Virus record (IMG/VR): IMGVR_UViG_3300032770_000009
Location: 32,001-96,000 of that record
Reading direction: 5' to 3' (one strand)
Length of the DNA stretch: 64,000 nucleotides
Origin: a virus
Part shown: positions 13,270 through 31,880 of the stretch, piece by piece
How the letters are laid out: each line of letters opens with the position of its first letter
Numbering within the stretch: position 1 is the stretch's first letter
The notes under the pieces: generated by a model
Database searches by the model: none
What the model saw: only the letters and a program-made list of their open reading frames with translations
What the model was told of the DNA's origin: nothing
Translations under genes and position numbers: made by a program

Positions 13270-13442
13270 ATTTTTTCTAATACCACTGGTGACTATCATT
13301 GTTAGTGCAAACATGCTCTTGCAACATAGCATGTCCTCTTGTCAGATCACATGACCCGTCACATCGTGGACATTTTGCAGGACAAGGGTCTTTGCCTCTG
13401 TAAACTATATTAAGTCCCATTTAATCCTCCTTATCATAACAG

Positions 13443-13731: not shown

Positions 13732-13811
13732 TGGGCCGCCTAGGGATCGAACCTAGCATGTCAAAGACGGCAGGGTTACAGCCTGCTTTCCCACCTTGGG
13801 AATTCCGACCC
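13732..13811 (-). tRNA. tRNA-Tyr(GUA)
   Basis: Cloverleaf with variable arm; loop CTGTAAC. Confidence 0.85.
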
Positions 13812-13888
13812 AAAACCTAGGCAATCCGGAGAAAACCTAGGAGTAATCTTAGATGACGACGTTACCGCCGCCCTGAGTTGATATTTAA

Positions 13889-13940
13889 AGCCTACCAGAC
13901 CCAACGTCCGATGTCAAATCGGACATTCAGGACAAACCGG
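13889..13940 (-). promoter_or_regulatory. Sigma70-type promoter with GGACA repeats
   Basis: TTGACA-N17-TAGGCT; CGGACATTCAGGACA upstream. Confidence 0.65.
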
Positions 13941-13942
13941 GA

Positions 13943-14314: not shown

Positions 14315-14361
14315 ATTAGCAGCCTCTCATGAGAGAAATAATATTACAATGACAGTATACA

Positions 14362-15094: not shown

Positions 15095-15120
15095 TGTTTC
15101 CTCCTTGTTTGTTTGTGCTA

Positions 15121-15198
15121 TGGTCTAGATAGAGGGATTCGAACCCCCGTTATGCCTGACCCCAAATCAGGTGCCATACCAAGCTAGGCGATATCTAG
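15121..15198 (-). tRNA. tRNA-Pro(UGG) with encoded CCA
   Basis: Cloverleaf; CCTGA-TTTGGGG-TCAGG. Confidence 0.9.
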
Positions 15199-15202
15199 AA
15201 AC

Positions 15203-15272
15203 CGGGAGGTTCTTCCATTAAACTACCATACCCATGAATAGTGGATATGACCGGAGTCGAACCGGATTCCCC
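15203..15272 (-). ncRNA. Free-standing circularly permuted tRNA-like RNA (T-acceptor-D, opened at the anticodon loop)
   Basis: CGGGG...UCCCG closing stem; CCGG-UUCGACU-CCGG; CAUAUCC/GGGUAUG closed by a 9-nt loop; GUUU-AAUGGAA-GAAC. Confidence 0.65.
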
Positions 15273-15275
15273 GTG

Positions 15276-15348
15276 TGGACAGTAAGGGATTCGAACCCTT
15301 ATTCGCTTGCTTGCAAAGCAAGTGCCTTACCAGTCGTGCCAACCGCCC
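15276..15348 (-). tRNA. tRNA-Ala(UGC)
   Basis: Cloverleaf; G3:U70; CTTGC-TTTGCAA-GCAAG. Confidence 0.9.
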
Positions 15349-15701
15349 ATTGTGCCGCTTACGCGGCGGTACTACTAGAAAACCATGTCGATAAACGCAT
15401 CGAATTCTGCGTCTAGGATATCCTGCTGTGCTCTTTGCATTTCATAAGCAGCAGCACGGCGATTACCCATAGCCAGATCCATCTGTGCTCTTTGCTGAGC
15501 CATCTGAGCATCTTCCAGATCCATAATTTCATCGAACTCAATAAAATCCATTAGTCCTCCTAAAACTTGTTACCGTAGTCTGATGGCATTACAATCCAGT
15601 TTCCGCCATCCCAGTATCTTACTACACCATCCATGTCAACCCATTGCTCATACGTATAAGGGTTATCTGGCGGATCTTGTGTTCTTATTGATTTATTCAC
15701 G

Positions 15702-15731
15702 TTGGGCGACTGGGACTTGAACCCAGGACTA
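15702..15731 (-). pseudogene. 3' half (variable loop, T-arm, acceptor) of a split tRNA
   Basis: UAGUC-CUGGG-UUCAAGU-CCCAG-UCGCCCA-A; acceptor strand pairs with 16491-16497. Confidence 0.75.
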
Positions 15732-15956
15732 TGAAGCAGTAGACATCTTTACGATATAAATTCCCATAGCAACAGCAGCAAAGAAAGATACTGTGCCCAA
15801 AGCTGGGTACTTCTTTATAAGAGCATGGGAACCTGCTATTGCAAGATAAGTCCCTGTAACCATAACAACAGCAGCTTGTTCCTCTGGTGTCATTGCTGAT
15901 ACTACATTTTCATAGTCTTGCATACTAGAGAAGCCCATAAATTCTGTTTCATTCAT
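15729..15956 (-). CDS. Small membrane protein inside the split tRNA
   Basis: 75 aa with two hydrophobic segments; its TAG stop lies in the variable loop of the 3' tRNA half. Confidence 0.6.
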   Translation of the reverse strand: MNETEFMGFSSMQDYENVVSAMTPEEQAAVVMVTGTYLAIAGSHALIKKYPALGTVSFFAAVAMGIYIVKMSTAS

Positions 15957-15987
15957 TTAATTCTCCGAATCTGTAAAATTGTTAAAG

Positions 15988-16061
15988 TTGGGATAGAAGG
16001 AATTGAACCTTCTCAAAGTGTTTATAAGACACTTTCCGTCAAACCGTTCGGACCTACCCCA
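15988..16061 (-). tRNA. tRNA-Ile(UAU)
   Basis: Cloverleaf; AGTGT-CTTATAA-ACACT; overlapped by the end of the endonuclease ORF. Confidence 0.8.
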
Positions 16062-16456
16062 ATGCTAAGAATCTCGTAATCCTCAGCCCAGTTGATATTG
16101 GGAGAAGCTTTGAAAGGATTTTTGACTCTTAAACGCATACTACCTGCTGGTGCGTCATCAACTGGAATCCAGTATACCTTGTTTAAGTCAGGCGAGTACA
16201 CGGCAAACAAATCAGCTTCACCTTTGTAACCCTTGTGGACATTTGTGAAAGGACTAATGCTAACAGTGTTGAATACAACACAGCCGTTATCAATTCTGCC
16301 AGTTTTGACTTGGATTCGTGTGAAGTTATTGTTTTCTTCAACAACCATATCATATCGCTGGTTGTCTCCAAACGGCAGCAGAACTGTTTTTCCCTGCTTG
16401 ATTAGCTCGGCTAAGACAACAGCTTCACTTATTTCTCCGACTGCTTTGCTATTCAC
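16022..16456 (-). CDS. PD-(D/E)XK homing endonuclease (I-Ssp6803I-like family)
   Basis: SKAVGEISEAVV..LLPFGDNQRYDMVVE..RIQVKTGR..YKGEADLFAVYSP. Confidence 0.85.
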   Translation of the reverse strand: MNSKAVGEISEAVVLAELIKQGKTVLLPFGDNQRYDMVVEENNNFTRIQVKTGRIDNGCVVFNTVSISPFTNVHKGYKGEADLFAVYSPDLNKVYWIPVDDAPAGSMRLRVKNPFKASPNINWAEDYEILSIGVGPNGLTESVL

Positions 16457-16465
16457 TAATCTCCT

Positions 16466-16497
16466 TGTGCTGCTCTAACCGACTGAACTACCGCCCA
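16466..16497 (-). pseudogene. 5' half (acceptor, D-arm) of a split tRNA
   Basis: UGGGCGG-UA-GUUC-AGUCGGUUA-GAGC-A-GCAC followed at once by the AAGGAG RBS of the endonuclease. Confidence 0.75.
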
Positions 16498-16822
16498 ATG
16501 ATTACTAAGATTCTTTTTCTGCTTTCTCGACAAGAATCTTAGCAGCGGCAAGCGCGGCCAATTCTGTCTTAGTAAGAGTCTTAGGATCTCTCTTTTCAAG
16601 TTCTTTAATCACCTTAAGAGCCCTTGCAAGAGCATCTTCCACTACAGTCCACCTACTTTCCATCCACGGTTAGGTACAGTATCTACAGGTTCACTAACCC
16701 ACAATACATCCCATAATACAGCAGGTGCATGCTTTAAAGTTACCCTGTCACCTATTTTAACATCTTTATCAACCCAGCATGTAAGATGGGTGTCGTGTGC
16801 TTTTAACTTGACTTGTATCATG

Positions 16823-16895
16823 TGAGTCCCGTGGGATTTGAACCCACAACTCCCAACTTAAAAGGATGGTACTCTGCCAATTGAGTTAGAGACTC
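16823..16895 (-). tRNA. tRNA-Lys(UUU)
   Basis: Cloverleaf; loop CTTTTAA. Confidence 0.85.
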
Positions 16896-17218
16896 ATTTT
16901 CCCTGAGCCGTACTGATTTTTCCAACCTCGAATAGCCAACTGCTCAAGGTTATCGGCTTTCGATTTCTGAGTATGATGAACTGCGCATAGAAGTTGGCAC
17001 TTTTCAAGTTCAGCTAGAAATCTTACTTTAGCTATAGACCACATTTTGTTGACAGGAACCTCTTTGTAAACCCAGTCTATGTGGTCTATTTGCAAGTTTT
17101 CCGTTGTTTCACATATCGCACACACTCCACCTAGCAGTTTTTTAGCAAGAGCCATTCGCTCCGCATAGCGTCTTTGCATGTATGTATTCATGTAATTGTT
17201 ATAGTCTTTAGAAGGCAT
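16886..17218 (-). CDS. HNH endonuclease
   Basis: GGVCAIC..NLQIDHID..ELEKCQLLCAVHH; 3' end overlaps tRNA-Lys. Confidence 0.85.
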   Translation of the reverse strand: MPSKDYNNYMNTYMQRRYAERMALAKKLLGGVCAICETTENLQIDHIDWVYKEVPVNKMWSIAKVRFLAELEKCQLLCAVHHTQKSKADNLEQLAIRGWKNQYGSGKMSL

Positions 17219-17483
17219 ATTTAGTTGTTTTTCTTTTTTGGCTGCATATGTTCTGGAGCAGGTTTCTTACACAAAGAACATCTAAGGACGCCTGTCACTC
17301 TGTCTTTAATATAAAAATGTTTACCATTCTGGCAATTACTGTTACCCATACTACTTCACTTTTTTCCAAATGTCAACTAGAAGATTAACGCAGGCTATAA
17401 TAGCTATTCCTGTACCTAGTCCGCTACCAAAAAATACCTCAAATCCGTGTTCCCAACCCATCTGTCCCTCCTAATATAGAAAG

Positions 17484-17556
17484 TACCCTGAGAGGGATTC
17501 GAACCCCCGACCTTATGCTTAGAAGACATTAGCTCTATCCACTGAGCTATCAGGGC
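17484..17556 (-). tRNA. tRNA-Arg(UCU)
   Basis: Cloverleaf; loop CTTCTAA. Confidence 0.85.
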
Positions 17557-17769
17557 TTGGTTTAGCAACGACACTATTAAGCCGCCGTATGCTAAACGGT
17601 ATACGCATGTTTACAGGCTGCAGTCCTAATATCTAGAATTTTGCTGTCAGAACCTCAAGTCCAATAAGTCATGCCTGACTTTATGCTCCGCACCGTCAAG
17701 GACTCAAGACGGTGCAACCTTCTATATACAGAAGACCTTTCATCCGGATTTCATATCTGTACGGGAGCG

Positions 17770-17842
17770 CGCCCTGACCTGGACTCGAACCAGGGACCGT
17801 CACTTTAGGAAAGTGTTATTCTATCCTCTGAACTACCAGGGC
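17770..17842 (-). tRNA. tRNA-Arg(CCU)
   Basis: Cloverleaf; loop TTCCTAA. Confidence 0.85.
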
Positions 17843-18070
17843 GTAAAACTATTTTTCCTTCTGCTCTTTCTCTAGCTTAACTACTTCCCTTGTACGACGA
17901 AGCACTTCAGCCTTAAGCTTTTTAACCATAGCATAACTATCCGGGTTTCCGCCATTGCGGTCTTTGATTAGTTGTATAGCCTCAGCCAAATCGGATTCAG
18001 CATCCGCTAGAAGCATCTTAGCCAAACCTAGAGTATCAGCCATTCTTTCCTCCATCTCTTGTTTTCTATG

Positions 18071-18144
18071 TTGGGGAAGAGGGACTTGAACCCTCGGTCT
18101 TTTCCTTATCAGAGAAACGATTTCACCAGCTAATCTACTCCCCA
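18071..18144 (-). tRNA. tRNA-Ile(GAU)
   Basis: Cloverleaf; loop CTGATAA. Confidence 0.85.
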
Positions 18145-18153
18145 TTGTTACTG

Positions 18154-18215
18154 TGGAGTCAAGAGATTTGAACTCTCCACCCATAGTGGCCAATTACGGG
18201 TTACACCATTACCCC
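18154..18215 (-). ncRNA. D-armless tRNA-like RNA with G3:U70
   Basis: GGGGUAA...UGACUCC-A acceptor, AGAG-UUCAAAU-CUCU T-arm, CCGUA/UAUGG hairpin, no D-stem. Confidence 0.45.
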
Positions 18216-18217
18216 AG

Positions 18218-18289
18218 TACACCCAGAGGGAGTCGAACCCCCATTCCTAGATCCGTAGTCTAGTGCCCTGTCCATTGAACGATGGGTGC
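18218..18289 (-). tRNA. tRNA-Arg(ACG)
   Basis: Cloverleaf; CTAGA-CTACGGA-TCTAG. Confidence 0.9.
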
Positions 18290-18369
18290 ATGTACTAAAT
18301 TTGACGAATGAGACTTTACTTATCAGTGTATTCTATGATTCTCTTGTACGGGCTTTAGTACGTGCCCTT

Positions 18370-18442
18370 GGGCGAACATCGAGAATTGAACTCGAATATT
18401 TGGTTCCACAGACCAATGTTCTACCATTGAACTATATCCGCC
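18370..18442 (-). tRNA. tRNA-His(GUG)
   Basis: Cloverleaf; G-1:C73; loop CTGTGGA. Confidence 0.9.
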
Positions 18443-18568
18443 ATGGGTCACGCAATTTTATGCTTCTTGCGTGGAACAGCTTCTGTATTTACAGCTACAG
18501 ATCAGCAGGAGCCCTTTTGTTCCGACATCTTGTAAAGCGCGCCCGGAACGGGTAATGCTCATACCTAG

Positions 18569-18639
18569 CAGGGCGACAGGGACTCGAACCCCAAACTGCG
18601 GTTTTGGAGACCGCTGTTTTACCATTAAACTATCTCCCC
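18569..18639 (-). tRNA. tRNA-Trp(CCA)
   Basis: Cloverleaf; GCGGT-CTCCAAA-ACCGC. Confidence 0.9.
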
Positions 18640-18783
18640 AAGTGAGAAACGCACTTACCTATGCGCAGAATTAACGCCGCCTTCCCCATCCGGCATTATT
18701 GCGTTAAGCATAACCACCCATGCGATAGCCGCCGATATCGCCCTAGAACCCTCAGCGCATCTCTCTTTGTTGTTATGTCTAAT

Positions 18784-18812
18784 ACCCTACCACACGTCCG
18801 GCCCTTTGTCAA
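18784..18812 (-). promoter_or_regulatory. Sigma70-type promoter
   Basis: TTGACA-N17-TAGGGT; AAATCGGACATTCGGGAC box further upstream at about 18877-18895. Confidence 0.6.
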
Positions 18813-18813
18813 A

Positions 18814-19125
18814 TCAAGTGACTGAGACAAAAATCCGCGTATCGTCACCCTTCGGGCGAACCACCGTACCCTGGGGCAAATCGGACATTCGGGACGTAAC
18901 TAGTTTTCCAGACGTCCCTCGAAGATCCATCTCATGCATGTGATAGCGTTTGCAGAAACATTCATCCCAGTCAGATCCACCGGGGAGGTAAGCCTTGCAC
19001 TCAGGATCGTGCTTAGCATTAAAAGCATTAACCGTTTTGTCAGCCTCTTGTTTATCAAGAGTAGTCATAATACACTGATGGTAACTATCCCACGGAACTT
19101 CAGCGCATACTACGTAGCAGATCAC
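18814..19125 (-). CDS. Hypothetical protein
   Basis: ORF track; coupled to 19122..19394. Confidence 0.5.
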   Translation of the reverse strand: MICYVVCAEVPWDSYHQCIMTTLDKQEADKTVNAFNAKHDPECKAYLPGGSDWDECFCKRYHMHEMDLRGTSGKLVTSRMSDLPQGTVVRPKGDDTRIFVSVT

Positions 19126-19541
19126 TTAAGGAATGTTTCTATCTTGCCGCGCTTCATGAATTTTTCCATGTCAACTTCACCAAGTACGTTGGCTTCTATA
19201 AGTTCAACCTTGACATCGTATTTTCTTGGCTCATCGAACCCCGCGTAAACATATGTCTGCACAGCCATTTGCAAACCACCATAACGCACTCTTGGCTTGC
19301 TTGCCCATCTAAACCTAGGGTTTATCTCTGTTCTCGTAACCCTGAACAGATGACGCTTATTGTTATCGTACATTAATCCTCCTGATTGAGCCATTCAAAG
19401 TCAGCTTCGCTAAGCTGGCCGCCAGTAGACGGTGATACATATATTTTAGGATGGCGCGGCCTGTACTGACAACGATACACCCATATACCAAACACTTCAG
19501 CATGTACCATAGGTACACCACAGCATTCAAATGTCATTACG

Positions 19542-19612
19542 CTTCCCCCCAAAGATTCGAACTTCGATTCATGGTTCCAAAGACCACTGTCCTGCCATTA
19601 GACGAAGGGGAA
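19542..19612 (-). tRNA. tRNA-Gln(UUG)
   Basis: Cloverleaf; loop CTTTGGA. Confidence 0.9.
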
Positions 19613-19617
19613 TAGAG

Positions 19618-19690
19618 CTTCCGCCCCAAGATTCGAACTTGGAACCACATGGTTCAGAGCCATGTACTCTGCCAGTTGAGCTAGACGGAA
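19618..19690 (-). tRNA. tRNA-Gln(CUG)
   Basis: Cloverleaf; CATGG-CTCTGAA-CCATG. Confidence 0.9.
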
Positions 19691-20381
19691 ATATGCCGCT
19701 TACGCGGCTGTTGTATTTAACTCGATAATACCATTTATGTCAAGTGCTTCAGTTTGAACAGCTAGCATCTGACTATTTTTCATGTAGCGCTTCTGCCTGT
19801 CCTGAGCTTCCTGGCGTTTACGTGCCTTTTCTGCTTGCATAACACCTTTGTTAGGACCATATTTACGTGGCGGTCCTTGCGGGCCTGTGAATTTATACCA
19901 CTTATCCAAAACTCTTCTCCCACCATTCGGCGAATACAGGACCGTTGAACTTCAGAACATGGCGAAGCTTGTTACGCTTGCGGTGACCCTCAGCATTATA
20001 ACGCATATGCGACGGCTTCTTGCGCTTATTACCTGTTTTGCTATGTGCCATCATACCCCCTTAAGCTTCGCTGTGGTCGTACGTAACTCCCTTATTAGCA
20101 CATTTAACACAAATATGTAGATTAGCTTGTGCGTCACTCATAAGTTTGTTAAATCTCATTTTATATTCGCAGTGCTTGCACCTGTAAACGTATGTCACTT
20201 TCCCTCCAGCCACAACTTCCAGAAATCGTCGAGAAGTTGCTTCTTTATGTCTTCTGCCATTTCTTCCGCTAGATTCCATTCCTCTATAGGAATGCTATGT
20301 TTCACACGAAATTCTTCGGCATGGCGTTTAGCATCTTCTAGAGCTTTAGCCTCAGCTTTAGCATCCATTTTCCTCCTGTCG

Positions 20382-20454
20382 AGCCAGATATCGGATTTGA
20401 ACCGATGACCGCATTCTTACCATGAATGTGCTCTACCGACTGAGCTAATCCGGC
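20382..20454 (-). tRNA. tRNA-Thr(GGU)
   Basis: Cloverleaf; loop ATGGTAA. Confidence 0.9.
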
Positions 20455-20545
20455 TTGTGGCGTCAGTAGAAATGCTAGTTTAAAGCGCTACTATATCTAG
20501 TATTTCTTGGGGCTGCTGTCGGCCGCACCAGTTATTCCCCTTTAG

Positions 20546-20619
20546 AGCCACCTAACGGATTCGAACCGTTGACCTGCTCATTACAAGTGAGCTGCTCTGG
20601 CCATCTGAGCTAAGGGGGC
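20546..20619 (-). tRNA. tRNA-Thr(UGU)
   Basis: Cloverleaf; GCTCA-CTTGTAA-TGAGC. Confidence 0.9.
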
Positions 20620-20749
20620 GTATTTCTAATTGTCCTTACGGTACAAGTAAGTTGTAGTACGACAAGCAGGGCATTCTTTCCTGATAACTTTGTCAGTGTA
20701 CTTAAGTTCTGATATTTCTTCGCAAAGAAGACATTTGTATTTATTCACG

Positions 20750-20822
20750 CTCTCACATCAGGACTCGAACCTGAAACCTATCGGTTAACAGCCGAACGCT
20801 CTGCCAATTGAGCTATGCGAGA
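20750..20822 (-). tRNA. tRNA-Asn(GUU)
   Basis: Cloverleaf; loop CTGTTAA. Confidence 0.9.
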
Positions 20823-21195: not shown

Positions 21196-21660
21196 CTAAA
21201 AGTCGATCCATGGTGTGCCCACAGCGAAAGTAGGTATACCGAGGGACTGCCACATTCTCAGAACTTGCGGTCTGTCGTCTATAGCGAACTGAATATCGTA
21301 TTTCGGTTCTATATGATTACGGTAAATTTCTTCCTTCACTATGTAGTCTTTCCTGTAATCAGGCAGACCGTTAGCCAGCCAGTCAGGACGCATAAACAGC
21401 TCATTGTCGTAAGGCGTGAAAACATTCTTACCGAGCCATTCCTTTGTGTCGTCACGGCTTCTCTCCGGTCTTCCTGATACAAAGACGCAGGTAACGTTAT
21501 CTGGTTCTGAAGGAGACAGAATAAGACTAGTTACGACATGGATGACATGAGGATTAGGTTTGTCAAGCATAACTTTATCGTAATCGAGATGTCCCCTGAT
21601 GCCTTCGTGGTCCGCCACTGTGCCATCTATATCACATATGAATGCTTTTATTTTATTCAT
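21196..21660 (-). CDS. Polynucleotide kinase/phosphatase (PseT)-type 3'-phosphatase HAD domain, stand-alone
   Basis: AFICDIDGTVA, FVSGRPE, LFMR, D..VKEEIY, FAIDDRPQVLRMW. Confidence 0.85.
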   Translation of the reverse strand: MNKIKAFICDIDGTVADHEGIRGHLDYDKVMLDKPNPHVIHVVTSLILSPSEPDNVTCVFVSGRPERSRDDTKEWLGKNVFTPYDNELFMRPDWLANGLPDYRKDYIVKEEIYRNHIEPKYDIQFAIDDRPQVLRMWQSLGIPTFAVGTPWIDF

Positions 21661-22225
21661 TACCCTCCAAGCAACAGCCGTCGCATCCGTGAACAGATAC
21701 GTCTCTTTTAATTGTCTTGTTGAATGCTACATCATCAGGGTCAGGGTGACCAACACCGTGAGGACACAGCCTTTCCATCTTCTTAGCATCTGCTCTCCAA
21801 TTCTGCGGCCATGCAGTCATATGATGATCGGAAGGGTTATGAATGCAGCAGTTACGTCCCTGGCACATTTTACTGTTATGCACTCTAAGAGTCTGGCCGC
21901 CGACAAGGGTAACATCTTCCATGTCAAGTATCTTCTCTGCTGAATCCCAGAAAGCATCCCATTCGTACTCTTCCATAGACCTGCCGACATGCCATGTGTA
22001 GGTGGCGTTGTTAATGTCAGGAGAACAGAAGTAGCACGGGTAAGCTTCAAATGACTTTTTCCTGGATTTCATCAGTGAAGCAGCGTGCTTGTGTGCTGTC
22101 AGGAAATCAGAGTGCTTAACCTTGGTGCCGCATGTTGAATCTCTGCCGTAGTATCTTCCCGCTGCAAGGTGTACTTTTATTTCCTTATCGGTAGGATAGA
22201 TTAGTTCCAGCGGAAGGTCTATCAT
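21653..22225 (-). CDS. Cys/His-rich hypothetical protein
   Basis: CCIHNPSDHHM..MERLCPHGVGHPDPD..HGCDGCC. Confidence 0.6.
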   Translation of the reverse strand: MIDLPLELIYPTDKEIKVHLAAGRYYGRDSTCGTKVKHSDFLTAHKHAASLMKSRKKSFEAYPCYFCSPDINNATYTWHVGRSMEEYEWDAFWDSAEKILDMEDVTLVGGQTLRVHNSKMCQGRNCCIHNPSDHHMTAWPQNWRADAKKMERLCPHGVGHPDPDDVAFNKTIKRDVSVHGCDGCCLEGNE

Positions 22226-22378: not shown

Positions 22379-22642
22379 TTAAGCACTTATAACCTCAAAC
22401 TGCTGTGTGTGAGCCGCTACTGATGTTCTTACAGATTTCTTAGCCTTGGCGATTAGGTGCTTCGGCGGAGTTGTCCGTGTAGCAGTAACAGGGGTAGGCT
22501 CATTGCTTACCTGGTTCCAGGTAGTCATCTCTACTTTGTCGAAATGTTTCGGGTGTACCATGTCATGACCTTCATCAAGGTCGCACACAAGTATAACTTT
22601 TCCTGTCACAGCACTTCTCTTGTTTGACTTGCAACGAGCCAT
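22379..22642 (-). CDS. Hypothetical protein
   Basis: ORF track; GGAG RBS. Confidence 0.5.
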   Translation of the reverse strand: MARCKSNKRSAVTGKVILVCDLDEGHDMVHPKHFDKVEMTTWNQVSNEPTPVTATRTTPPKHLIAKAKKSVRTSVAAHTQQFEVISA

Positions 22643-23045: not shown

Positions 23046-23152
23046 AGGCTACCACAGACATCGGCATTTGTCAAATCGGACATTTCGGGACATACGCGCA
23101 TATAAAGGTGCGAAAATCTGGACTTGACAAGACGGCCGGTCCATGATAGTCT
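23046..23152. promoter_or_regulatory. Divergent promoter pair at the strand switch
   Basis: Minus: TTGACA(23069-74)-N17-TAGCCT; plus: TTGACA(23124-29)-N17-TAGTCT; CGGACATTTCGGGACA between them. Confidence 0.7.
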
Positions 23153-23195
23153 GATGACATGATCGTACACGTGGACACATGGAGGGAATCGACAC

Positions 23196-23636
23196 ATGGA
23201 ATTTGAGAACGGAACAAGGGTATCGTTCGAAGTAACAGGAACAGTCATCAGTGACGAGTCGTTCCTAGACAAGATGGAAGAAATCTACGGGCCTGTAGCT
23301 AAGAGTATGGACATAACGATGTCAGGACGTGACTTCACCAACATACTTCTTGACAACGGAGTTGTTACCCGGATTGATACAACAGAAGACGAACTGGGTA
23401 TAGCAGTTAGCAGGGTAAAGCCTCGCTACTGGCCTCCTAAGAGAGATGATGTATGGAGAGACGACCATGACGGATCTTGGTATGTAACCGAAATGGATTT
23501 CGGTAACCGTAAGGGAACACGTATGAAGCAGTTTACAGGAGACGGAGAAGTTGTCCGCAGTTCTGTTGTTTTCTTGCAGGAAAACGTGCACCCTTACCTG
23601 CTTATAAGAGACGGAGAGTACCTAGGTGTTAGTTAA
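23196..23636 (+). CDS. Hypothetical protein, WPP-x-x-x-D-V-W paralog family
   Basis: First gene of the plus-strand island; similar to 25929..26306 and 28163..28558. Confidence 0.65.
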   Translation: MEFENGTRVSFEVTGTVISDESFLDKMEEIYGPVAKSMDITMSGRDFTNILLDNGVVTRIDTTEDELGIAVSRVKPRYWPPKRDDVWRDDHDGSWYVTEMDFGNRKGTRMKQFTGDGEVVRSSVVFLQENVHPYLLIRDGEYLGVS

Positions 23637-25203
23637 AGGCAAGCCGCTTAAGCTTACATATGCTGGATCTGTAATATCTGTCAACTCCGACAGAAAAGCA
23701 ACAATAGCCAATATAACCGTTATGCTGAACGGAACTTACTACGTGGCTACCGGAAGTAGCTGGAGAGACAGTGGAGACCCTTACGACAAGACTAAGGGAG
23801 ATCTTATCGCATTCAGCCGGGCTGTTGAAGAACTAAGAGACGTTCTGAAAGAAGAAGTAAGGAAACTAGGAGACTAATGGAGACATTCAACTTCACCAAA
23901 GCCGGTTACGCATATCACTTAGGGAATTTCCAGTTCTACTGGATTTCCAAGGACACCTACTATGAAGTAACACATTACGGCAGGACTGGAATTATATGTC
24001 AGGTGCATCCGTACAAAGGAGAAGAAGGCACTCTAGGGCAAGACAGTAAAATGTTCACCGTAATAGCTCACGACTATCCCGGTGTAGGAAAACTTGAGCA
24101 GATGGTGAAAGGCGCGGATCTTCTGGAATACATAGATTCAATTCGCATGGGAAGAGGAATGTAAAATGGCAATGGCGGCTCTAATTGCGGCGAACGTGGT
24201 AAATCAGTCGGCGGCAACTACAGCCGCTAAAGTCAGATCAAGATACGCTAAGTTCGATACTAGTCTTCTGTACACTGTTAACGACGATTACTCCACCCAC
24301 CCGTATCCTACTAACGAGGAACTGGGGATACAAGATGTTACTCGTACTACTCTAGGTCAGCCGGTACTTAAGGAGGACAAGGATGTCTACGGTCTTCCTA
24401 AAGCTGAGACAAGGTGGGAAGTATTCAAGAAGATGTGGATTCCCAACTTCAAGTACAAGGGCAGGAGACGTAAATGATAGAAATATCAGAAGGTCTAGTC
24501 AAGGTAAATTACGTAGAAGCATTACACGAAACAGACGAGTTTGTTGTCTACATGGTCAATACTGCTACTAAGAGACCTGAAGTCATAAGCTGGAATAGCT
24601 CTATTGTTACCCTTCTTCCTGCTGACAAAGACTGGGGCATGATTCGTCCCATGGACTACACGGTTATCCGGTTTCCTGAGAAATTTGGATATACATCAGT
24701 GTACCAAGAGGAGCGGTACTGCGTGTTCTTCATACAGTTCAAGACAGAGCACGGTACGATAGTATGGGAGAAGGATGACACAGGTAGTTAACAGCATAGG
24801 ATACGGAGACGGCTTCCAGTACAATTTATCATCTCCGGTGGTAGTGAACACCGGAGATACTATGCTGGTAAACGGCACTCCGTTGACATATGACGGACGT
24901 GGATGGAATTACGGTTATAACACGATTTCATCAGGATCAGCAAACGGAACATGGAATGAGGAAAATATGAATAACGTGGCAAATGTTTACGACAACCTTA
25001 TCTTTACAAGAAACTGGTGCTACGAGCCGTGGTCGGTTACCAATATCAAGACCGGCAAGGAAGTAGGTAAGGTCTACGAGGTTAAGAGAGGTAGTCACGT
25101 AGGACTGAACAACAACAGCAGTTTTTACAGTGTCCTGGCTGACGGAAAGATCACTTACCCTCTTCTTAGCTGGAATGCGCTTCTGGAGAAGCTTGGGGGA
25201 TAA
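23626..25203 (+). other. Run of five translationally coupled hypothetical genes (23626, 23877, 24166, 24474, 24775)
   Basis: ORF track; stop/start overlaps and RBSs. Confidence 0.6.
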
Positions 25204-25233
25204 GAATGCCATTCTGGCACGAATGGTAGTAAA

Positions 25234-25473
25234 ATGATAGTAGTCACAACTACTATCACAGGAGCTTTAATGGCAACTATGTACTCACCAAGGCATTCAG
25301 CTAACTCAATGCCAAGGGTGCAGCCCTTTGCCGGGAACAACACCAGGAACTTACAGCCACAGCAGTTTGGTACCGGAACAAGGTCAAGCGGTAATGTCAA
25401 TACAGGATTCAATCCACTGACATATCAGGGCGGTGCTCACAGAGCAGGATCAGGCGGCATATTCAACATGTAA
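25234..25473 (+). CDS. Small Gly/Asn-rich protein (probable start MATMYS)
   Basis: GGAG RBS; followed by a terminator. Confidence 0.55.
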   Translation: MIVVTTTITGALMATMYSPRHSANSMPRVQPFAGNNTRNLQPQQFGTGTRSSGNVNTGFNPLTYQGGAHRAGSGGIFNM

Positions 25474-25474
25474 A

Positions 25475-25500
25475 TGAAAGGGACTTCGGTCCCTTTCAGT
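25475..25500 (+). terminator. Intrinsic terminator-like hairpin
   Basis: TGAAAGGGAC-TTCG-GTCCCTTTCA. Confidence 0.65.
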
Positions 25501-25928
25501 ATTTTAGGAGGAAAGTGGGACTTTACTGCATAGAGAAATGCCCTAAGTGCAGAAAGAACGTGTGTAAGTTCACCAGTAATCATGGTCACAACCTAAGTAA
25601 ATGGCAACACGAATGCAAGGGCTGCGGAGGAAAATGGGATGTCTCGTTTGTTCCGGGGAAAGACTAGAGTAAAACTTTCAGTAGTAGAAGATCACTGGCC
25701 GGAAATTCGTATAGTAGAAGATATACCTGTAGAAGGTATTACGCCGCAGGCTCTTATAATCCGCGTAGGGAGTGTCTTCACTTACGATTCAGATCCGAAG
25801 GCAAGAACAGGAATATGGGTAAATTACGATTCTGGCGACGGAGACAATCTCTACGGGCCGGTACTGATGGATTACGAAAGCTGGAAAAAAGTAAACAAGC
25901 ACGTAAAGAAGCGATGGAGGGACAGAAC

Positions 25929-26306
25929 ATGGCCAATCTACATCTGGTTCGACAAGATGACGGCGAAATTGTCCGCGTTGGACATACAGTTGAGATAAGC
26001 AAAGTCATAGAAATTACAGATATACTCAGCACCAATTCTTACAAAGGTAGTGCCTTTGTAAAAGGCGATGACGGAAAGCGCTATCTAGTAGGAACAGAAT
26101 GGGACTTCAAGTTCGCTACTCCTAAGACATGGCCTCCGAGACCTGGGGATGTATGGAAGACCAACGATGTTAAATACGCCGCTATAGCACGCGGTGACAT
26201 TATAGTGCTAGAACCAATGACAACCAATGACAGGAATGTCGTACTTCCTTCAGATTTCGGTTCGTTCCTCGCGCAGAACCCAATACTAGTCTACCGCGAA
26301 AGGTAA
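25929..26306 (+). CDS. Hypothetical protein, WPP paralog family
   Basis: Start MANLH with GGAGG RBS; WPPRPGDVWK..PILVYR. Confidence 0.6.
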   Translation: MANLHLVRQDDGEIVRVGHTVEISKVIEITDILSTNSYKGSAFVKGDDGKRYLVGTEWDFKFATPKTWPPRPGDVWKTNDVKYAAIARGDIIVLEPMTTNDRNVVLPSDFGSFLAQNPILVYRER

Positions 26307-28162
26307 GCTATGGACATCATAAAAGGAAGTAATGTAAAAGTTACCCTTAAAGGTATCGTGACGGAAGTAGTTCAGGGAGGATTTTGGATCAAGCACCCAG
26401 ATAGTCCTAACTCAAGTTTCATCTACACGGGTCATGGGGTCACTGTAGAAGACATGCCCCTAGAAAGCCCAGAGAGCCAATCTGGGAGGGTTTATAAGCT
26501 AGACGAGTCCGGGGCAGCAGTTAGGGCTTAAAGTCGATCAGCGTGGCTGTACGGGCCTTACAGGAGGTACTATGAACAAGGAAGAGATCGTAGATGAGAT
26601 ACATAAAAAATTTTATTCCGAAACTAGCCTTGAGCCGCTTCGCCAGGCATATGATTTCGGTTACGAAGAAGGCTACCGTGACGGCTTCAAAGATGGTCAG
26701 TACGAAGCGGATCACGGATACCGGGAATGAAATAGACCAGGTGTGGTCGGACGCTGAGATAGGATACTATCTAAGGCAGATAGCTGACAAGATAGACCCT
26801 AATCCTCAGTTCAAGGAGATTTAATGAAATGCGGTTTCAAATGCCCCTCATGCGGTGGAAATTGCAGTAAGGACTCGGTATCCGGTCTGCACTACTGTAA
26901 AACTCACGGCTTGTGGCCTAAGATGAAGTAGGCGGCAAATGCGAGCTAATCTTATAAAACTTATGATACCGAAACAGTGCCCGGAAGAATGCGGCACATG
27001 TCATCATCAGTGCATACAAGACAAAGGTCATAATGTAAAAAAGAAAAAACATATATGCTTCTACGGCCATGAGTGGCAGTAATGGAAAAATTCTGCATGA
27101 TGCCGTGTCCTTACTGTGATAGCTGCTGTCAGTTGCTGTGGCTGCACATACCAATGGTTGTAGAGCATGTATGCGCTAGAAGGCACAGGTACACAAACGA
27201 TGACGTGCTCAAGCCAGTGTGAAAAATGCGAAGGTATATGCACTCAGCTCAGCAAACATGAAATGCACAAGTGCCCTGTAGGACACAAATGGAAAAACGA
27301 ATGGTGGGAAGAATAATTTCCAAGATAGAGGACTAAATTTGCGTAGGTCCATACTGAAAACGCCGTGCTCTAAATGCGGATGCTGGCATGACATAAGAGG
27401 CGCAAGACCTCACTGTGAAAATTGCAACTGCAATCATGTAGGAGCGGGCAGCCGTGTAAACGGTAAATGCCCGTGCTGCGGATACTGATGCCAAGGCTTA
27501 AACTACCGCCTGGAATACCCGACCAGTGCGAAGAAACAAACAGATGCCCTGTATGCGGCGATGACTGTATAGAATACAAAGGGCACAGACCGAAAATAAA
27601 ACATCTGTGCATTAAATGGCATGAATGGGAGTAGAAAATGGCAAGAAAACCGTGTCCTGAAAAATGCCCTGTATGCGGAGGACAATGCCGGTGGACAGCG
27701 GGACATGTGATACTGGACAACACATGGCACCAGTGCTATGTCAACGTTACGCATCCATGGCCTAAAACAGAAGACTAAATAAGAAGGGAGGATGAAATGA
27801 GAAAATACGTGATGCTTTACCTGTTCGGGGTTGTCATGTTCTACGTGTTGCAGTCAGTAAGCCCCGCACTTGGTTTCATGACTATGGCTGCTTCATTTAG
27901 TCTTCCCTTCCTTAAATACTCACTGCGGGCAGCCAGAATAGAAGACGAAAGATGCAGGAGTGAAAATCTCAGGGGAATACGCTGATGGTTGACTGCAACT
28001 ACAAGTGGACTAATACTGACCCCAACGCAGAAAGAGGACCCGACGGCAAGAAACTGCACCCTTTTCACATATGCACTAACTTGGCTCACGCTTTGGGAAC
28101 GCACAAATGCAAATGCGGTGTAATCAAAGTTAAAGACAAAAGAAATTGAAAAAGGAGGAGAC

Positions 28163-28558
28163 ATGGATTATTTCCACAAAGGCGATCTTGTTACGGTCAC
28201 TATCAGGAACTTTAAGGTTATGGAAGACGACAGTCTGAGAGGTGTTCACGACGGCATAGCATATTCAACAAGAGCAGGAAGAATATCTGACGAAATTTTC
28301 CTGTCACAGTACAGCGGAGAAATCTCAGCTGTCAAGGAAACACGTGCCAGCGATTTCCGTCCGAAGGTAGGAGATATCTATAAGGCAGACGGCAAGATCT
28401 GGTATGTCAGGAAATACAACGGTTACAGCGGCACAGTAGTAATCGAAGACGGAGAAGGAAACTCTTACTCTGACGACAAGTACAACTTGAGCAACGAACT
28501 GGAAAGTTTCGGAAGGAAAATGCCCAGGCTACTGGTAAGAGACGGCAAGGAGGTTTAA
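28163..28558 (+). CDS. Hypothetical protein, WPP paralog family
   Basis: FRPKVGDIYK..WYVR..PRLLVRDG. Confidence 0.6.
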   Translation: MDYFHKGDLVTVTIRNFKVMEDDSLRGVHDGIAYSTRAGRISDEIFLSQYSGEISAVKETRASDFRPKVGDIYKADGKIWYVRKYNGYSGTVVIEDGEGNSYSDDKYNLSNELESFGRKMPRLLVRDGKEV

Positions 28559-29437
28559 TGAGCAGTCACAGATGCCAGGAAAAATGCTGCAAATGCGATT
28601 ATCAGTGCTGTCTTCTGAAAGACCACGCAGGGTACGAGTTCATAAAGAAGCACTATTGCTCAGTGCATTTCTACATGGTAGATCCAAGACCGTCTGAGTA
28701 AAAGGAAACATGTCGAAACTAAGCAGAGAACAGCAGGCATCAAAAAACGGGGGATGGTATTCCTGCACTTCCAAATGCCCTAAATGCGGCAGGGAATGCA
28801 GCACGTTCACAGGAAGAACTCCCTCCGCTGAACATGAAAAGCACATGTACTCCTCTATGCCAGCGCACTCTAAAATAAGAGGCGGCGACAATCACAAGTG
28901 CACTAGCTGCTGGGTGTACTGGGCATAGTCTAGCAAAGGAAAAATACAATGGGTATGAGAAAAAACAACAACGGCCGGTGCCCTTCACGATGTGACAGAG
29001 GGAAACTTACCGACAGATGCACAAACCAGTGCAATCTACAGATCAACCATCACCGTGATTTCTATTACGATGACGATGATAACAAGATTCCGCAGACACC
29101 AAAGAAAATGCACGACTGCGGCAAGCACTAATGGCTAATATTGACCCAGACTGCACTTATCAGCAGTGCGGGCACAGAAGAGGCAGCACTACAGGACCGC
29201 ACTGTATTGACGAAAAATGCCCCAACTGGGTTAACAAATGCGAGAAACACCGTACAGACGGCAAGAATGGAAGTACAATGCCATGGAGATCAAGGAAGCC
29301 TGACAAGTGAGTAACGTATGCGGGATACAGTGCCCTTACTGCGAAGGGCACTGTAAAATTAAACACAAATACAAGCCGCAGCATCATATATGTGATACGA
29401 ATGATTTCCATACATGGACAACTAGTTAGGAGCAGCA

Positions 29438-29968
29438 GTGACTGACGTGGTACTTTGCGAAAACAAATGGGTTTCGCTTATAGAAAGAACACTAGACGGA
29501 CATGACCCTTACGTGTACTCCCATGAAACCAGATGCCAGGGAAGAATAGTCGCGCTGCTTCCTTACAGGGTTAAAGTTGTCAAAGGCATCTGGGAAAACA
29601 CAGAATACAGGGAATATCTAGTTAAAAGCGAGATGACCCCGTGCTGGACCCCGGAAAGGATATACAGTGCTATCACAGGAGGATACGAAGGCGGTGACAT
29701 AGCCGATGACGCTGTTAAGGAAATGCTAGAAGAAACCGGCTATGTTATAGACAAAGACGAACTAATAAGTCTGGGGACAAGTTACGCCAGCAAAAGCTCT
29801 GACACCGTATACAGCCTGTTTACCGTAGATCTTACCGACAAGCAACCGGGAGATGCTAACGGAGACGGAACCGAAGAAACACAGCAGTCAGTATGGATCA
29901 GCGGCGAGGAAATAAAAATGATACAAGACCCGCAAGTATCCGTTATGTACATCCGGTTGCAGCACTGA
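29438..29968 (+). CDS. NUDIX hydrolase
   Basis: GGYEGGDIADDAVKEMLEETGY Nudix box. Confidence 0.75.
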   Translation: MTDVVLCENKWVSLIERTLDGHDPYVYSHETRCQGRIVALLPYRVKVVKGIWENTEYREYLVKSEMTPCWTPERIYSAITGGYEGGDIADDAVKEMLEETGYVIDKDELISLGTSYASKSSDTVYSLFTVDLTDKQPGDANGDGTEETQQSVWISGEEIKMIQDPQVSVMYIRLQH

Positions 29969-30958
29969 AATAAAGGAGGAACAATGGGACTTATAATGTG
30001 CGATGCGAAATGCCCGTCATGCGGAGACAAATGCCAGTGGACAAAATCATGGCACGCCAGATATCCGGGTGACGGTCATGTATGCAAGAGATACAAGCAT
30101 TTGTGGCCGAGATAGGAAAATCAGATGACTGAAGAAATACAGCAAGCCTACCGTGATCTAGACGCGGCGCTCACACGTATCAAAAACACCAAGCCGGGAA
30201 AAACAACTAGCGGACTGGAAGCACTGTACGGCAACGCATACTCCAGACTAGTACGACTCGGTGAGCGGCCTAAACTAAGAGGAAAATACAGGATTCAGTA
30301 AATGGCTGAAGAAATGTTCAGCAGCGAAGAAATCCGTACAATAATGTATGAAGTTAACGCTCCAGGAATGCTGAAAGTAAAAGACAGATACGGGATGCCG
30401 GTACTAATACCCGCCCAGTCAGTCACAGAAATATTCCCTAACTGGGAAGGTAAAATACACTACAAAACAGCAGGCGGCTCATACTACACCGGCCCCTACA
30501 GGCATACCTACGAAATACGAAACGAACTGGAACGAGTAGCAACACTAATAGCTTAAGACTCCAGCAAGGAAAAACAATGACACTTAAACCAGGAAACAGA
30601 ATAGGCATCCCCAAATGTACCTGTCAGTGGACAGACAGAGGCGACTACGAAGGGCAAGGCGGAAAAGGGCCAAAAGATTCTGATATGGAAAGAAGAGAGT
30701 GGATGGGCAAAACATACTATCGTCTGATAACTAGTCATGACTGCCCAGTACACAGTTAGGAAAATTCATGAAAATAAAACAGCGCTTCAGTGAACTGATG
30801 ACGGTATTAATGGTCATAGGAGACCAGATTATGGGCTTGAGGCAGGATATAACAGAACTTAGGAAAGAGCTGGCGGAATACAACGGCAGAGAAGCTAAAG
30901 ATATTACGATGCGCTGGGAGTAAACAGGCTCGCCGCCACCTAAATAGAAAGAAGGAAC

Positions 30959-31276
30959 ATGGAACAACTAAAACCAGTAGTACAAACTAATGATGTAAAT
31001 TTTGGATACAAGCTGAAAAGGCTGCTGGAACTAAACCCAGGTAAGCTAATCAGAAACACTAGTCTATCAACAGCGCTATCTTGTGCTACAAGTCAAATCA
31101 CAGGAGCTATAACACATCTAAATAGAAGACTAGACACGGACGTGCATTTCGTAGCTCAGGAAATACCAGGAGCACCAAGAGGACTGTACTACTATGGCCC
31201 GAAAATTCAGCAGGATGAACTACTAAAGATGCTGGATACATATACAGGTGTAGATGACCTAGAGATTCCCTGGTAA
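30959..31276 (+). CDS. Hypothetical protein, possible HTH DNA-binding
   Basis: LSTALSCATSQITGAITHL helix-turn-helix-like segment; last plus-strand gene. Confidence 0.45.
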   Translation: MEQLKPVVQTNDVNFGYKLKRLLELNPGKLIRNTSLSTALSCATSQITGAITHLNRRLDTDVHFVAQEIPGAPRGLYYYGPKIQQDELLKMLDTYTGVDDLEIPW

Positions 31277-31880
31277 TGTGCTACAACCAAATTTAAGCTA
31301 AAAACCAGCCGATTATCACTTATGGTAGTCGGTTTTGGTGTTTCTAAGGCAAAAGCAAGTGTTTAACGTATGTAAAAATCAAACACTTTTCCTTCCACTG
31401 GCTACTGAGAGTGACAATGATAGTAGTCTGAATGTGCTACATATAATGCCATACCACCCTTATGTACTGTCTAACTGAGTCTAAAATCCCTGCGTCTCTA
31501 AAAATTTTACGACCCTATCTACTGTTTTACTGTAAAATTGCTAAAACATTCAACTCAGATCTGGTCTCCCCCACTCTCAGAAACGGACATTAAGGATGGG
31601 GGGGTACATAACGGACATTAACTGTAACGGGATGATAACGAAATGGATGTGTGACTTGACAATGCAATACTTGTATGAATGTGAATGTGTGCAGAGTATG
31701 TATGCATGTCTATGTCGTCATGTTTCACGTGAAACTTGGAGGAAATTGCTGCCTGGCTATATTACGTGTGTATACGCATATATCTATGTTGTGTTAATCA
31801 TACTCATGTTAGTTACTGGTTATATTTAAGGGTATTAATAATTCTAGTGGGCGGCGGCAGAGAGTAACGGGTTATTGCTA
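31277..31880. other. Long AT-rich non-coding region at the convergence of transcription (candidate genome end or origin)
   Basis: No credible ORF; hairpin at about 31305-31338; composition shifts to higher GC to the right. Confidence 0.4.

Follow-up and report, generated by a model that had tools for sequence, protein, structure and literature searches.

Does a row of very short, Cys- and His-rich open reading frames (ORFs) in a viral genome represent a genuine protein family and, if so, what could such a family do for its phage? This question is raised by a locus in the IMG/VR virus record IMGVR_UViG_3300032770_000009. The stretch of DNA analysed here, called the window in the following, comprises 64,000 nucleotides (bases 32001-96000 of the 116,568-bp record), and all positions refer to it unless genome coordinates are specified. 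An earlier note, made from the sequence alone, had described eleven paralogous zinc-finger-like microproteins on a plus-strand island of the window and had interpreted them as a diversified library of two-zinc mini-scaffolds, such as anti-defence or host-takeover binders. In our analysis, the family comprises twelve members, designated ZF1 to ZF12, which sequence comparisons identify as real protein-coding genes and as a new family of putative metal-binding proteins. A role as small binders in host takeover or counter-defence is the reading that we favour, at about even confidence.

Twelve Cys/His-rich microproteins

The family is defined by the consensus C-x3-C-P-x-C-x3-C-x5-H-x4-9-H-x-C-x3-6-H-x-W, which spans about 35-40 residues in members of 35 to 72 codons. 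Columns were counted in 39 domain copies: the window contributes 12, from as many proteins, and another 27 are found in 21 external proteins. The five Cys residues are present in 38/38 (C1), 38/38 (C2), 36/38 (C3), 39/39 (C4) and 38/39 (C5) copies, and the three His residues in 33/38 (H1), 39/39 (H2) and 35/39 (H3). Pro follows C2 in 32 of 38 copies, and the final Trp is found in 34 of 38, the remaining four having Tyr. Overall, the eight ligand positions and the Trp are 87-100% conserved; in ZF1 and in the external homologues P0011 and P0019, H3 is substituted by a Cys two residues earlier. In the alignment of the twelve window members, M1, four Cys and one His are invariant and a fifth Cys reaches at least 90%, while the mean column identity is 26%. 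The statement of the earlier note that the metal ligands are conserved and the remaining residues variable is thus true among the paralogues. Together, the five Cys and three His provide eight potential ligands, a number that would fit two tetrahedral metal sites.

This pattern is far more frequent than in shuffled sequence. The core C-x3-5-C-x2-C-x2-4-C has 11 matches on the plus strand between 25500 and 30200, whereas 200 dinucleotide-preserving shuffles of the same region gave a mean of 0.15 and a maximum of 1 in all six frames. In the complete genome of 116,568 bp, 20 six-frame matches were found, 12 of which are family members; the other eight were read as off-frame Cys-rich strings, and the family profile matched none of them. 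A hidden Markov model (HMM) of the family, run over the genome at E ≤ 0.01, hit exactly 12 places with E-values from 1e-15 to 9.5e-5 (Table 1), namely the eleven ORFs of the earlier note and, as an addition to them, ZF12 among the minus-strand tRNA genes. All eleven ORFs of the earlier note are present with the peptides quoted there, and their starts were listed correctly except for two that were one base off (27200, not 27199, and 29984, not 29983). Four looser relatives that it had placed at about 27339, 27985, 28949 and 29131 are not members, because their hhalign probabilities against the family profile amount to only 0.1-11%.

The organization of the region is that of closely packed genes. 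About 33 ORFs tile positions 23196-31276 (approximately 8 kb), and most junctions are stop-start overlaps of 1 or 4 nt or gaps of less than 20 nt. With a codon model derived from the 41 genomic ORFs that are 200 aa or longer, the own frame has the best codon score of all six frames in nine of the twelve members, compared to two of twelve expected by chance. Most members are too short for standard gene calling, as had been noted before, and of the eleven island members only ZF9 reaches the 60-aa default. The additional claim that most of the ORFs have ribosome-binding sites or coupled starts largely stands: eight of the eleven island members are preceded by a Shine-Dalgarno (SD)-like motif, defined as a 4-6-mer within 20 nt, although the 4-mer criterion is lenient and the strand purine-rich, and the starts of ZF4 and ZF6 are coupled to the upstream stop by an overlap of one base. 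ZF3 has neither feature.

Comparisons between the members and their closest relatives point to selection at the protein level. For ZF6 and its orthologue, the proportion of synonymous differences (pS) is 0.78, i.e. synonymous sites are saturated, and the proportion of non-synonymous differences (pN) is 0.18. The ratio of non-synonymous to synonymous substitution rates (dN/dS) for ZF11 and its relative on the metagenome contig L020 (L020:407-553, 44% identity) is about 0.22. In the ZF6 trio, which consists of the window protein, P0003 and the L020 protein, 32 of 48 positions are invariant, including many non-ligand positions, and the ZF1 trio has 24 invariant positions. Saturated synonymous sites combined with few amino-acid changes indicate purifying selection. 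At the nucleotide level, the members share only repeats of 18-29 nt with 63-83% identity over the stretch coding for K-C-P-x-C-G, and the codons of the ligand Cys are mixed (37 TGC, 14 TGT). A DNA-level repeat was therefore rejected, as only these 18-29-nt repeats were found. Judged by these sequence comparisons, the twelve ORFs are real protein-coding genes.

How the family expanded can be deduced in part from the paralogues themselves and from L020, a contig of 1216 bp. L020 carries a syntenic array at 76-1165, back to back on its plus strand, which contains an orthologue of a 62-aa membrane-like protein, the ZF6 orthologue, four more members and a counterpart of ORF 27985. The order and content of the arrays differ between the window and L020, which suggests copy gain and loss between related phages. 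Within the window, paralogues are 22-50% identical, with a mean of 36% for adjacent and 37% for non-adjacent pairs. A tandem-duplication gradient was rejected on the basis of these means, and the low identity without a gradient along the array indicates that the expansion is old. The paralogous family is genuine, its Cys/His scaffold being constant and its surfaces variable, and its genes are tightly packed and constrained at the protein level. The term diversified library, which the earlier note had used, is nevertheless too strong for old paralogues with conserved orthologues (32 of 48 positions in the ZF6 trio, pN/pS about 0.23), and the parallel that the note drew with a Y-RNA array is rhetorical. 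The sequences suggest that the paralogues are fixed and specialised, and that they do not form a hypervariable repertoire.

Table 1. Positions of the family members and of associated features in the window.
Feature	Position	Strand	Length	Family HMM E	Remarks
ZF1	25515..25667	+	50 aa	1.7e-11	GTG start; AGGAGG 5 nt upstream; last ligand Cys replaces His (C-G-x-x-W)
ZF2	26824..26931	+	35 aa	2.7e-10	Shortest member; without first His; start has 1-nt overlap with upstream stop
ZF3	26939..27082	+	47 aa	9.5e-13	No SD-like motif; gap of 7 nt after ZF2
ZF4	27082..27222	+	46 aa	9.2e-13	TAATG stop-start overlap with ZF3
ZF5	27200..27316	+	38 aa	7.6e-11	Length from ATG 27200; frame also open from upstream ATG 27167
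ZF6	27488..27634	+	48 aa	1e-13	ATG 27488 overlaps upstream TGA; frame open from 27467
ZF7	27638..27778	+	46 aa	1e-15	Best family-profile match
ZF8	28558..28701	+	47 aa	7.3e-10	Terminates in H-x-Y, not H-x-W; AAGGAGG and 1-nt overlap with upstream gene
ZF9	28710..28928	+	72 aa	9.5e-5	Weakest member; N-terminal half canonical, C-terminal half enlarged and rearranged
ZF10	29307..29429	+	40 aa	2e-10	GTG start; 4-nt overlap with upstream gene
ZF11	29984..30115	+	43 aa	4.4e-14	AAGGAGG upstream
ZF12	13277..13420	-	47 aa	1e-13	Outside island; flanked by tRNA-Leu (13442-13525) and tRNA-Phe (13197-13269)
Promoter-like site	23124..23152	+			TTGACA-N17-TAGTCT with TG before -10; 44 nt upstream of first island ORF (23196)
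Divergent promoter-like site	23046..23074	-			Faces tRNA side, back to back with 23124 site
Promoter-like site	13889..13917	-			Upstream of tRNA-Tyr, tRNA-Leu, ZF12 and tRNA-Phe
Hairpin	25475..25498	+			10-bp stem and T-rich tract; directly upstream of ZF1 ribosome-binding site
Terminator-like hairpin	31307..31334	+			Closes island
ORF 27339	27339..27488	+	49 aa		9 Cys, TTG start; non-member by profile comparison
ORF 27985	27985..28149	+	54 aa		Cys/His-rich; non-member; 37% identical counterpart L020:853-996
Two coupled ORFs	28949..29310	+	60 and 59 aa		Cys/His-rich; non-members by profile comparison

Homologues, known families and predicted fold

Outside the window, the family is sparsely represented. 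A profile search of 1.84 billion representative proteins gave 23 matches at E ≤ 1e-3, which are ZF12 itself (identical to P0001), one protein of 1060 aa and 21 proteins with the family ligand pattern. The 1060-aa match consists of 19 partial stretches, shows scattered unrelated Pfam matches and was treated as spurious. All external homologues are singleton clusters from JGI, ENA, Logan or NCBI. Orthologue-like proteins exist for ZF4 (P0002 from a 3.5-kb JGI contig, near-identical with 2 differences in 46 aa by reading of the sequences), for ZF6 (P0003 with 83% identity; the L020 orthologue at 255-413 has 71%) and for ZF1 (P0011 with 59% and P0006 with 57%). Four proteins are multi-domain, P0004 and P0012 with three domains each and P0010 and P0014 with two each, and the other external homologues are single-domain proteins of 40-72 aa. 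A further homologue search gave five proteins, all among the 23 profile matches. Longer proteins were also searched for fusion partners, with 3102 candidates, none of which matched at E ≤ 0.01; this negative result is weak evidence.

P0010 comes from a Candidatus Auribacterota metagenome-assembled genome (MAG), where it is listed as hypothetical. This MAG contains three domain matches, two of them in P0010 (149 aa, L021 8001-8447) and one in a 123-aa protein (L023 1225-1596). Both proteins have a signal-peptide-like N-terminus, and the latter also has an Ala/Pro-rich linker. The P0010 gene overlaps the end of an upstream gene for another exported protein of 204 aa; DNA-alkylation repair, patatin and EEP-family neighbours were found in its genomic context, which gave no functional hint. 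The domain is present in one of 79 genomes of the Candidatus Auribacterota phylum. As far as can be judged from these sequences, it is rare and patchy, with cytoplasmic-type forms without signal peptide in phages and exported-type forms in few bacteria.

Additional scans did not widen this distribution. Viral-contig scans with P0003, P0011, the ZF6 trio, P0008 and P0004 returned no relatives, nor did a metagenome scan with the ZF1 trio. The metagenome scan with P0008 returned L020 only, and the 30-kb contig on record for P0008 was not among its results. A tblastn search with the three-domain P0004 against 50,697 phage records gave no match. In three IMG/VR contigs that are related through a 176-aa neighbour protein of the island (L002-L004, 70-95% complete), no member was detected by a regular expression within 8 kb on either side or by the HMM applied to the full length of the records (0 of 3). 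Three complete Streptomyces phages, the closest when DNA polymerases are compared, were also negative with the HMM (0 of 3).

Known families do not account for the domain. None of the ten window members scanned against Pfam at E ≤ 1 reached a family cut-off, the best being Zn_ribbon_Dof with 18.7 bits versus 26.6, and nine external homologues, including multi-domain ones, matched no Pfam family. The best PHROG match had a non-significant E-value of 0.036; NCBIfam gave no family for four window members, its SCIFF and ranthipeptide models being unmatched; PADLOC gave no match for the three members submitted; and a profile search of all PDB sequences had a best E-value of 0.81. Neither FAM221 (PF14753) nor zf-HC3 (PF16827) nor DUF3039 (PF11238) matched the six-frame translation of the whole genome at E ≤ 1. 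The earlier note had named an HMM match to a well-characterised family as one result that would refute it, and the Pfam, PHROG, NCBIfam and PDB-sequence searches produced none. Our literature search found no description of this motif family in phages, and the exact Cys spacing appeared in print only in two papers on ferredoxin classification and in one unrelated methods example. By these sequence searches, the family is new as a sequence family.

The fold was approached by structure prediction. The AlphaFold2 (AF2) model of ZF7, based on a 28-row alignment, has a mean predicted local distance difference test score (pLDDT) of 82.5 and shows only short β-bridges. The ZF6 model from a 30-row alignment reaches a pLDDT of 68.4; its N-terminal extension is disordered, and its bridges occur at the positions that align with those of ZF7. 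Helices are absent from both models. A Foldseek search of the PDB with the ZF7 model identified HVO_2753 (6ydh) as the best small-protein neighbour, but the match is insignificant (TMq 0.41, E 8.9). A wide VIA-align comparison with the 46-residue model, which has little power, gave four chains with Z ≥ 2 out of 48,161 and a best Z of 2.3; the C-terminal domain of topoisomerase I, the Cys-rich region of PriA and TFS4 were the neighbours at Z 2.2-2.3. The best E-value in a fold search of BFVD was 1.4, and the best feature score in the ESM Atlas, where no structure is available, was 0.83 and thus below the level that shuffled proteins often reach. All of these noise-level fold neighbours are small zinc-ribbon-like modules. 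Since models of 46 residues provide little power, the weak or absent matches are compatible with a known fold. With regard to metal binding, PMC11241148 states that AF2 does not settle this question for zinc-finger micro-proteins, and it reports that zinc was absent from 5 of the 14 predicted zinc-finger micro-proteins that had been purified.

The C(P)XCG micro-proteins of Haloferax volcanii, to which HVO_2753 belongs, are among the closest parallels. Like the phage proteins, they are smaller than 70 aa, contain little beyond a Cys metal knuckle of the CPxC(G) type and occur as many paralogues per genome. However, they use 4+4 Cys, whereas the eight ligands of the phage domain come from one CPxC knuckle, the Cys that flank it at C-x3 spacing, three His and an H-x-C element. 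Each phage member has a single C-[PGEC]-x-C knuckle, which is followed by Gly in five of twelve cases (ZF2, 6, 7, 9 and 11), and its second knuckle is H-x-C. Moreover, the Haloferax genes are scattered over an archaeal chromosome, while the phage genes form a tandem operon, and there is no sequence homology between the two groups. A second parallel comes from RING, PHD, B-box and MYND domains and the PriA Cys-rich region, which are protein-interaction modules of about 40 residues with eight Cys/His ligands. The phage domain resembles them in size, in its eight ligands and two predicted metal sites and in having little regular secondary structure, but it differs by its one C-x2-C pair with C-x3-C flanks, and the searches gave neither a Pfam match to any of these domains nor a fold match that rises above noise.

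The plus-strand island and its expression

The source record is rated as complete by CheckV and, judged by PHROG matches, represents a phage with a contractile tail. The genes for the tail sheath, tail spike, portal, a tail protein and the large terminase are located at genome coordinates of approximately 1-29.7 kb, and the baseplate wedge at about 110.5-112 kb. The window contains 33 tRNA genes on the minus strand (2977-20822) and, from about 32 kb on, a minus-strand replication/nucleotide module with DNA polymerase A, helicase, UvsX-like recombinase and exonuclease genes as well as a queuine tRNA-ribosyltransferase-like gene. The plus-strand island lies between the tRNA genes and this module, at about 23.2-31.3 kb. 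Its description as the only plus-strand island of the window agrees with the ORF map and with the AT and GC skews, which are positive solely at about 22-34 kb. By DNA polymerase, the closest cultured relatives are the Streptomyces phages BRock, GiJojo and pSt2308 (112-116 kb) with about 42% identity, and a megablast search with positions 25000-31000 gave no match among 50,697 phage records. In a survey of sequencing runs, one DNA run was listed, from a wetland metagenome that may be the source sample, and no RNA run.

Information on the timing of expression comes from a promoter-like motif, TTGAC[AT]-N16-18-TAnnnT, which occurs 29 times in the genome compared to 9.2 +/- 3.0 times in 100 block shuffles. 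It mostly takes the form TTGACA-N14-15-TGnTAGnnT, which is of the sigma-70 type with an extended -10 element. The minus strand carries 24 of the 29 sites, matching gene orientation, and 28 are located outside the structural modules, at genome coordinates 37,228-105,228. Minus-strand examples in the window are found at 5228, 6636, 10226, 13917, 18812, 21007 and 23074. One plus-strand site directly precedes the island (Table 1); the other plus-strand sites of the window are at 13539, 16305 and 58867, and there is none in 23153-31334. The motif class may represent the early/middle regulon of the phage and may hint at a TAnnnT preference of the host for the -10 element. As the island site belongs to a class that is confined to tRNA, replication and other non-structural genes, early/middle expression is probable. 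The hairpin in front of ZF1 would act as an internal attenuator or as an RNA-stability element, and we infer from this arrangement that host polymerase transcribes the island as one early/middle unit, possibly with attenuation before ZF1.

Dense modules of this kind have precedents. The host-takeover module of the Bacillus phage SPO1 and the early ORFs of T4 and T5 encode unrelated small proteins and use host-type promoters. The island is similar in that its genes are densely packed, very small, mostly orphans and set apart from the structural genes. It differs from these modules because a third of its approximately 33 ORFs belong to one paralogous family, for which PHROGs gave no match.

Among the neighbours of the members, ORF 27985 has a counterpart in the related contig L020 and is therefore probably a genuine gene that belongs to a different small family. 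The coding status of ORF 27339 is uncertain, because its best codon score is in another frame. The ORF at 27797-27985 (plus strand), in the middle of the array, encodes a hydrophobic protein of 62 aa that is probably a membrane protein; its counterpart (44% identity) is the first gene of the L020 array and is followed directly by the ZF6 orthologue. The ORF at 29438-29968 (plus strand, 176 aa), also located in the array, has a weak match to a Nudix hydrolase (phrog_1185, E 1.4e-4), which Pfam did not detect at E ≤ 1e-3. It contains a G-x5-D-x7-K-E-x2-E-E-x-G-Y stretch, which we take to be Nudix-box-like, and has homologues with 58-60% identity in L002-L004, the three contigs without the microprotein family. 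For all other proteins of the island, Pfam and PHROG gave no match.

Further observations concern the remaining ORFs. Those at 25639-25998 (119 aa) and 25815-26306 (163 aa) on the plus strand overlap by 184 nt in different frames, and each scores as coding; the overlap could be due to a later real start of the second ORF or to a programmed frameshift. The plus-strand ORFs at 23196-23636 and 25815-26306 share P-x-x-W-P-P-x-x-x-D-V-W (15 aligned residues, E 2e-4), and no similarity was found between ORF 28163 and ORF 25815. To the left of the divergent promoter region, two more Cys/His-rich ORFs are present on the minus strand at 21653-22225 (190 aa) and 22379-22642 (87 aa). They contain many Cys/His clusters, e.g. 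C-C-x-H-N-P-S-x-H-H and C-P-H-G-x-G-H-P-D-P-D-D, and the family profile matches neither of them.

One of the tRNA genes (9018-9090, minus strand) is predicted by ARAGORN to encode a suppressor tRNA with the anticodon TTA, which reads UAA; it also matches the Rfam tRNA model with 50.8 bits. Among the 73 ORFs with 150 aa or more, 52 end in TAA, 18 in TAG and 3 in TGA. As TAA is the stop of 52 of these ORFs, the tRNA would either be non-functional as a suppressor, or read-through is tolerated or regulated. Production of the microproteins by read-through or as a polyprotein via this suppressor-like tRNA was set aside, because the members occupy all three frames and have their own starts.

Possible roles of the family

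Which function would such a family have? The reading to which we give an even chance of being correct is that the members are two-metal mini-binders of the early/middle phase with paralogue-specific targets, which act as small inhibitors or adaptors in host takeover or counter-defence. Two metal ions, for which zinc is the default expectation in the cytoplasm, are most probably bound by the eight Cys/His residues, and the fold would be a small β-rich, zinc-ribbon-like knot whose tiny core is packed by the conserved Trp. Eleven copies are encoded in the densely packed and translationally coupled plus-strand operon at 23196-31276, and the host sigma-70-type promoter-like site at its head would ensure that the proteins are made early or in the middle phase, before virion assembly; ZF12 would be carried inside a tRNA transcription unit. 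Each paralogue is likely to bind its own macromolecular partner, probably a host protein, because the surfaces differ between paralogues and are kept between orthologues. We infer the steps that lead from scaffold to binder and from binder to host takeover or anti-defence.

A more far-reaching version is possible at a tentative level. In this version, the twelve paralogues would constitute a mini-binder repertoire, in which a rigid two-metal knot of 35 residues serves as the scaffold and the conserved surface of each paralogue is aimed at a different host protein. Candidate targets would be defence, transcription, translation or tRNA-processing factors, and some bacteria would use the same scaffold as an exported, repeat-forming module.

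Several observations weigh against the binder reading. The island proteins are ORFans, apart from the weak Nudix match, and PADLOC found nothing, so the context gives no functional anchor. Purifying selection on the orthologues does not resemble the signature of an arms race. The bacterial forms with signal-peptide-like N-termini imply that the domain is able to function beyond the cytoplasm, in surroundings in which zinc-thiolate sites are less common. The AF2 model of ZF6 is only moderately confident, three of the twelve members do not have the best codon score in their own frame, and the absolute codon scores of the members are lower than those of long genes. The low absolute scores can be explained by the rarity of Cys and His in the training set.

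Five of the twelve members are clearly basic (+3.9 to +5.8), ZF12 is embedded in a tRNA operon, and the weak fold neighbours topoisomerase I, PriA and TFS4 (Z 2.2-2.3) are zinc ribbons of the nucleic-acid machinery. These features could also be explained if the proteins were nucleic-acid-binding zinc ribbons that serve as small regulators of transcription or RNA processing, with ligands such as the DNA of phage or host, nucleic acid associated with RNA polymerase, or tRNAs and tRNA-like RNAs of the phage. We regard this as doubtful, because the other seven members are neutral or slightly acidic, the fold matches do not rise above noise, the family searches gave no DNA- or RNA-binding family, and the exported bacterial homologues would meet no nucleic acids. 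The net charges of the members range from -1.3 to +5.8, a spread that speaks against a nucleic-acid target common to all.

The role of the metal could also be different. If the Cys4 block bound an Fe-S cluster or Cu, Ni or Co, the proteins would function in redox reactions or metal handling, as electron carriers resembling mini-ferredoxins, as metal chaperones or as a sink for metal, which we consider unlikely. The block contains the Cx3Cx2C spacing of radical-SAM clusters, and exported bacterial homologues would fit metal handling in the envelope. PMC8928951 lists two rare subtypes of 2[4Fe-4S] ferredoxins in which the complete CX3CX2CX3C spacing makes up one half, and PMC11241148 mentions metals other than zinc in predicted zinc-finger micro-proteins. 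In the phage domain, however, the fourth Cys is not followed by Pro, no Fer4-type or other Fe-S family of Pfam matched at E ≤ 1, and a single cubane would leave the three His, the fifth Cys and the Trp tail, all foreign to ferredoxins, unexplained. Furthermore, 4Fe-4S ferredoxins typically carry the motif CX2CX2CX3CP or a variant of it, and their α+β fold contrasts with the short β-bridges and missing helices of the AF2 models. WhiB-like Fe-S proteins comprise about 80-120 aa with C-Xn-C-X2-C-X5-C, a G[VI]WGG turn and a basic C-terminus, whereas the members have 35-72 aa, another Cys spacing and no such turn; Whib of Pfam gave no match at E ≤ 1 for the ten members scanned. A metal sink, finally, would need neither conserved non-ligand surfaces in each orthologue group nor twelve diverged paralogues.

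Short, Cys-rich proteins encoded in tandem, with conserved Cys, variable loops and bacterial homologues that carry signal peptides, are also reminiscent of disulfide-rich or modified peptides, i.e. exported toxins, bacteriocins or products similar to ribosomally synthesised and post-translationally modified peptides, which act outside the producing cell. This is very unlikely here, because the phage copies lack a signal or leader peptide, with the domain beginning 1-20 residues from the start, and because the number of conserved Cys is odd (five) and three His are conserved as well; in addition, no maturase-like neighbour was detected in the island, and the SCIFF and ranthipeptide models of NCBIfam were unmatched. 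That the ORFs are no genes at all, but frames that are Cys/His-rich by chance or a repeat of non-coding DNA or RNA, is strongly disfavoured: most of them lie below the usual gene-calling length and three of twelve do not score best in their own frame, but the 11 pattern matches versus 0.15 in shuffles, the homologues called independently in other metagenomes and a bacterial MAG, the substitutions constrained at the protein level only with saturated synonymous sites and no DNA-level repeat, and the syntenic array in L020 speak against it.

Genes of 35-50 codons are usually missed by annotation, because they are below the 60-aa default cut-off. In this phage, about one third of an approximately 33-gene operon, which is probably expressed in the early/middle phase, encodes one undescribed and probably metal-binding family, and this family recurs in a related contig with copy gain and loss and under purifying selection. 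The analysis yields a precisely specified ligand pattern, a defined profile with 12 + 27 domain copies and, as candidates for biochemical work, ZF7, ZF12 and ZF6 with its orthologues. If the members are not binders, they would still represent a new small, probably metal-binding domain that is common to phages and few bacteria. If they are specific binders of host factors, they would provide new tools and new entries among the phage takeover and anti-defence proteins. A mini-binder repertoire, if it exists, would offer a natural minimal binding scaffold of biotechnological interest and would be part of a general, so far unannotated layer of phage-host interaction.

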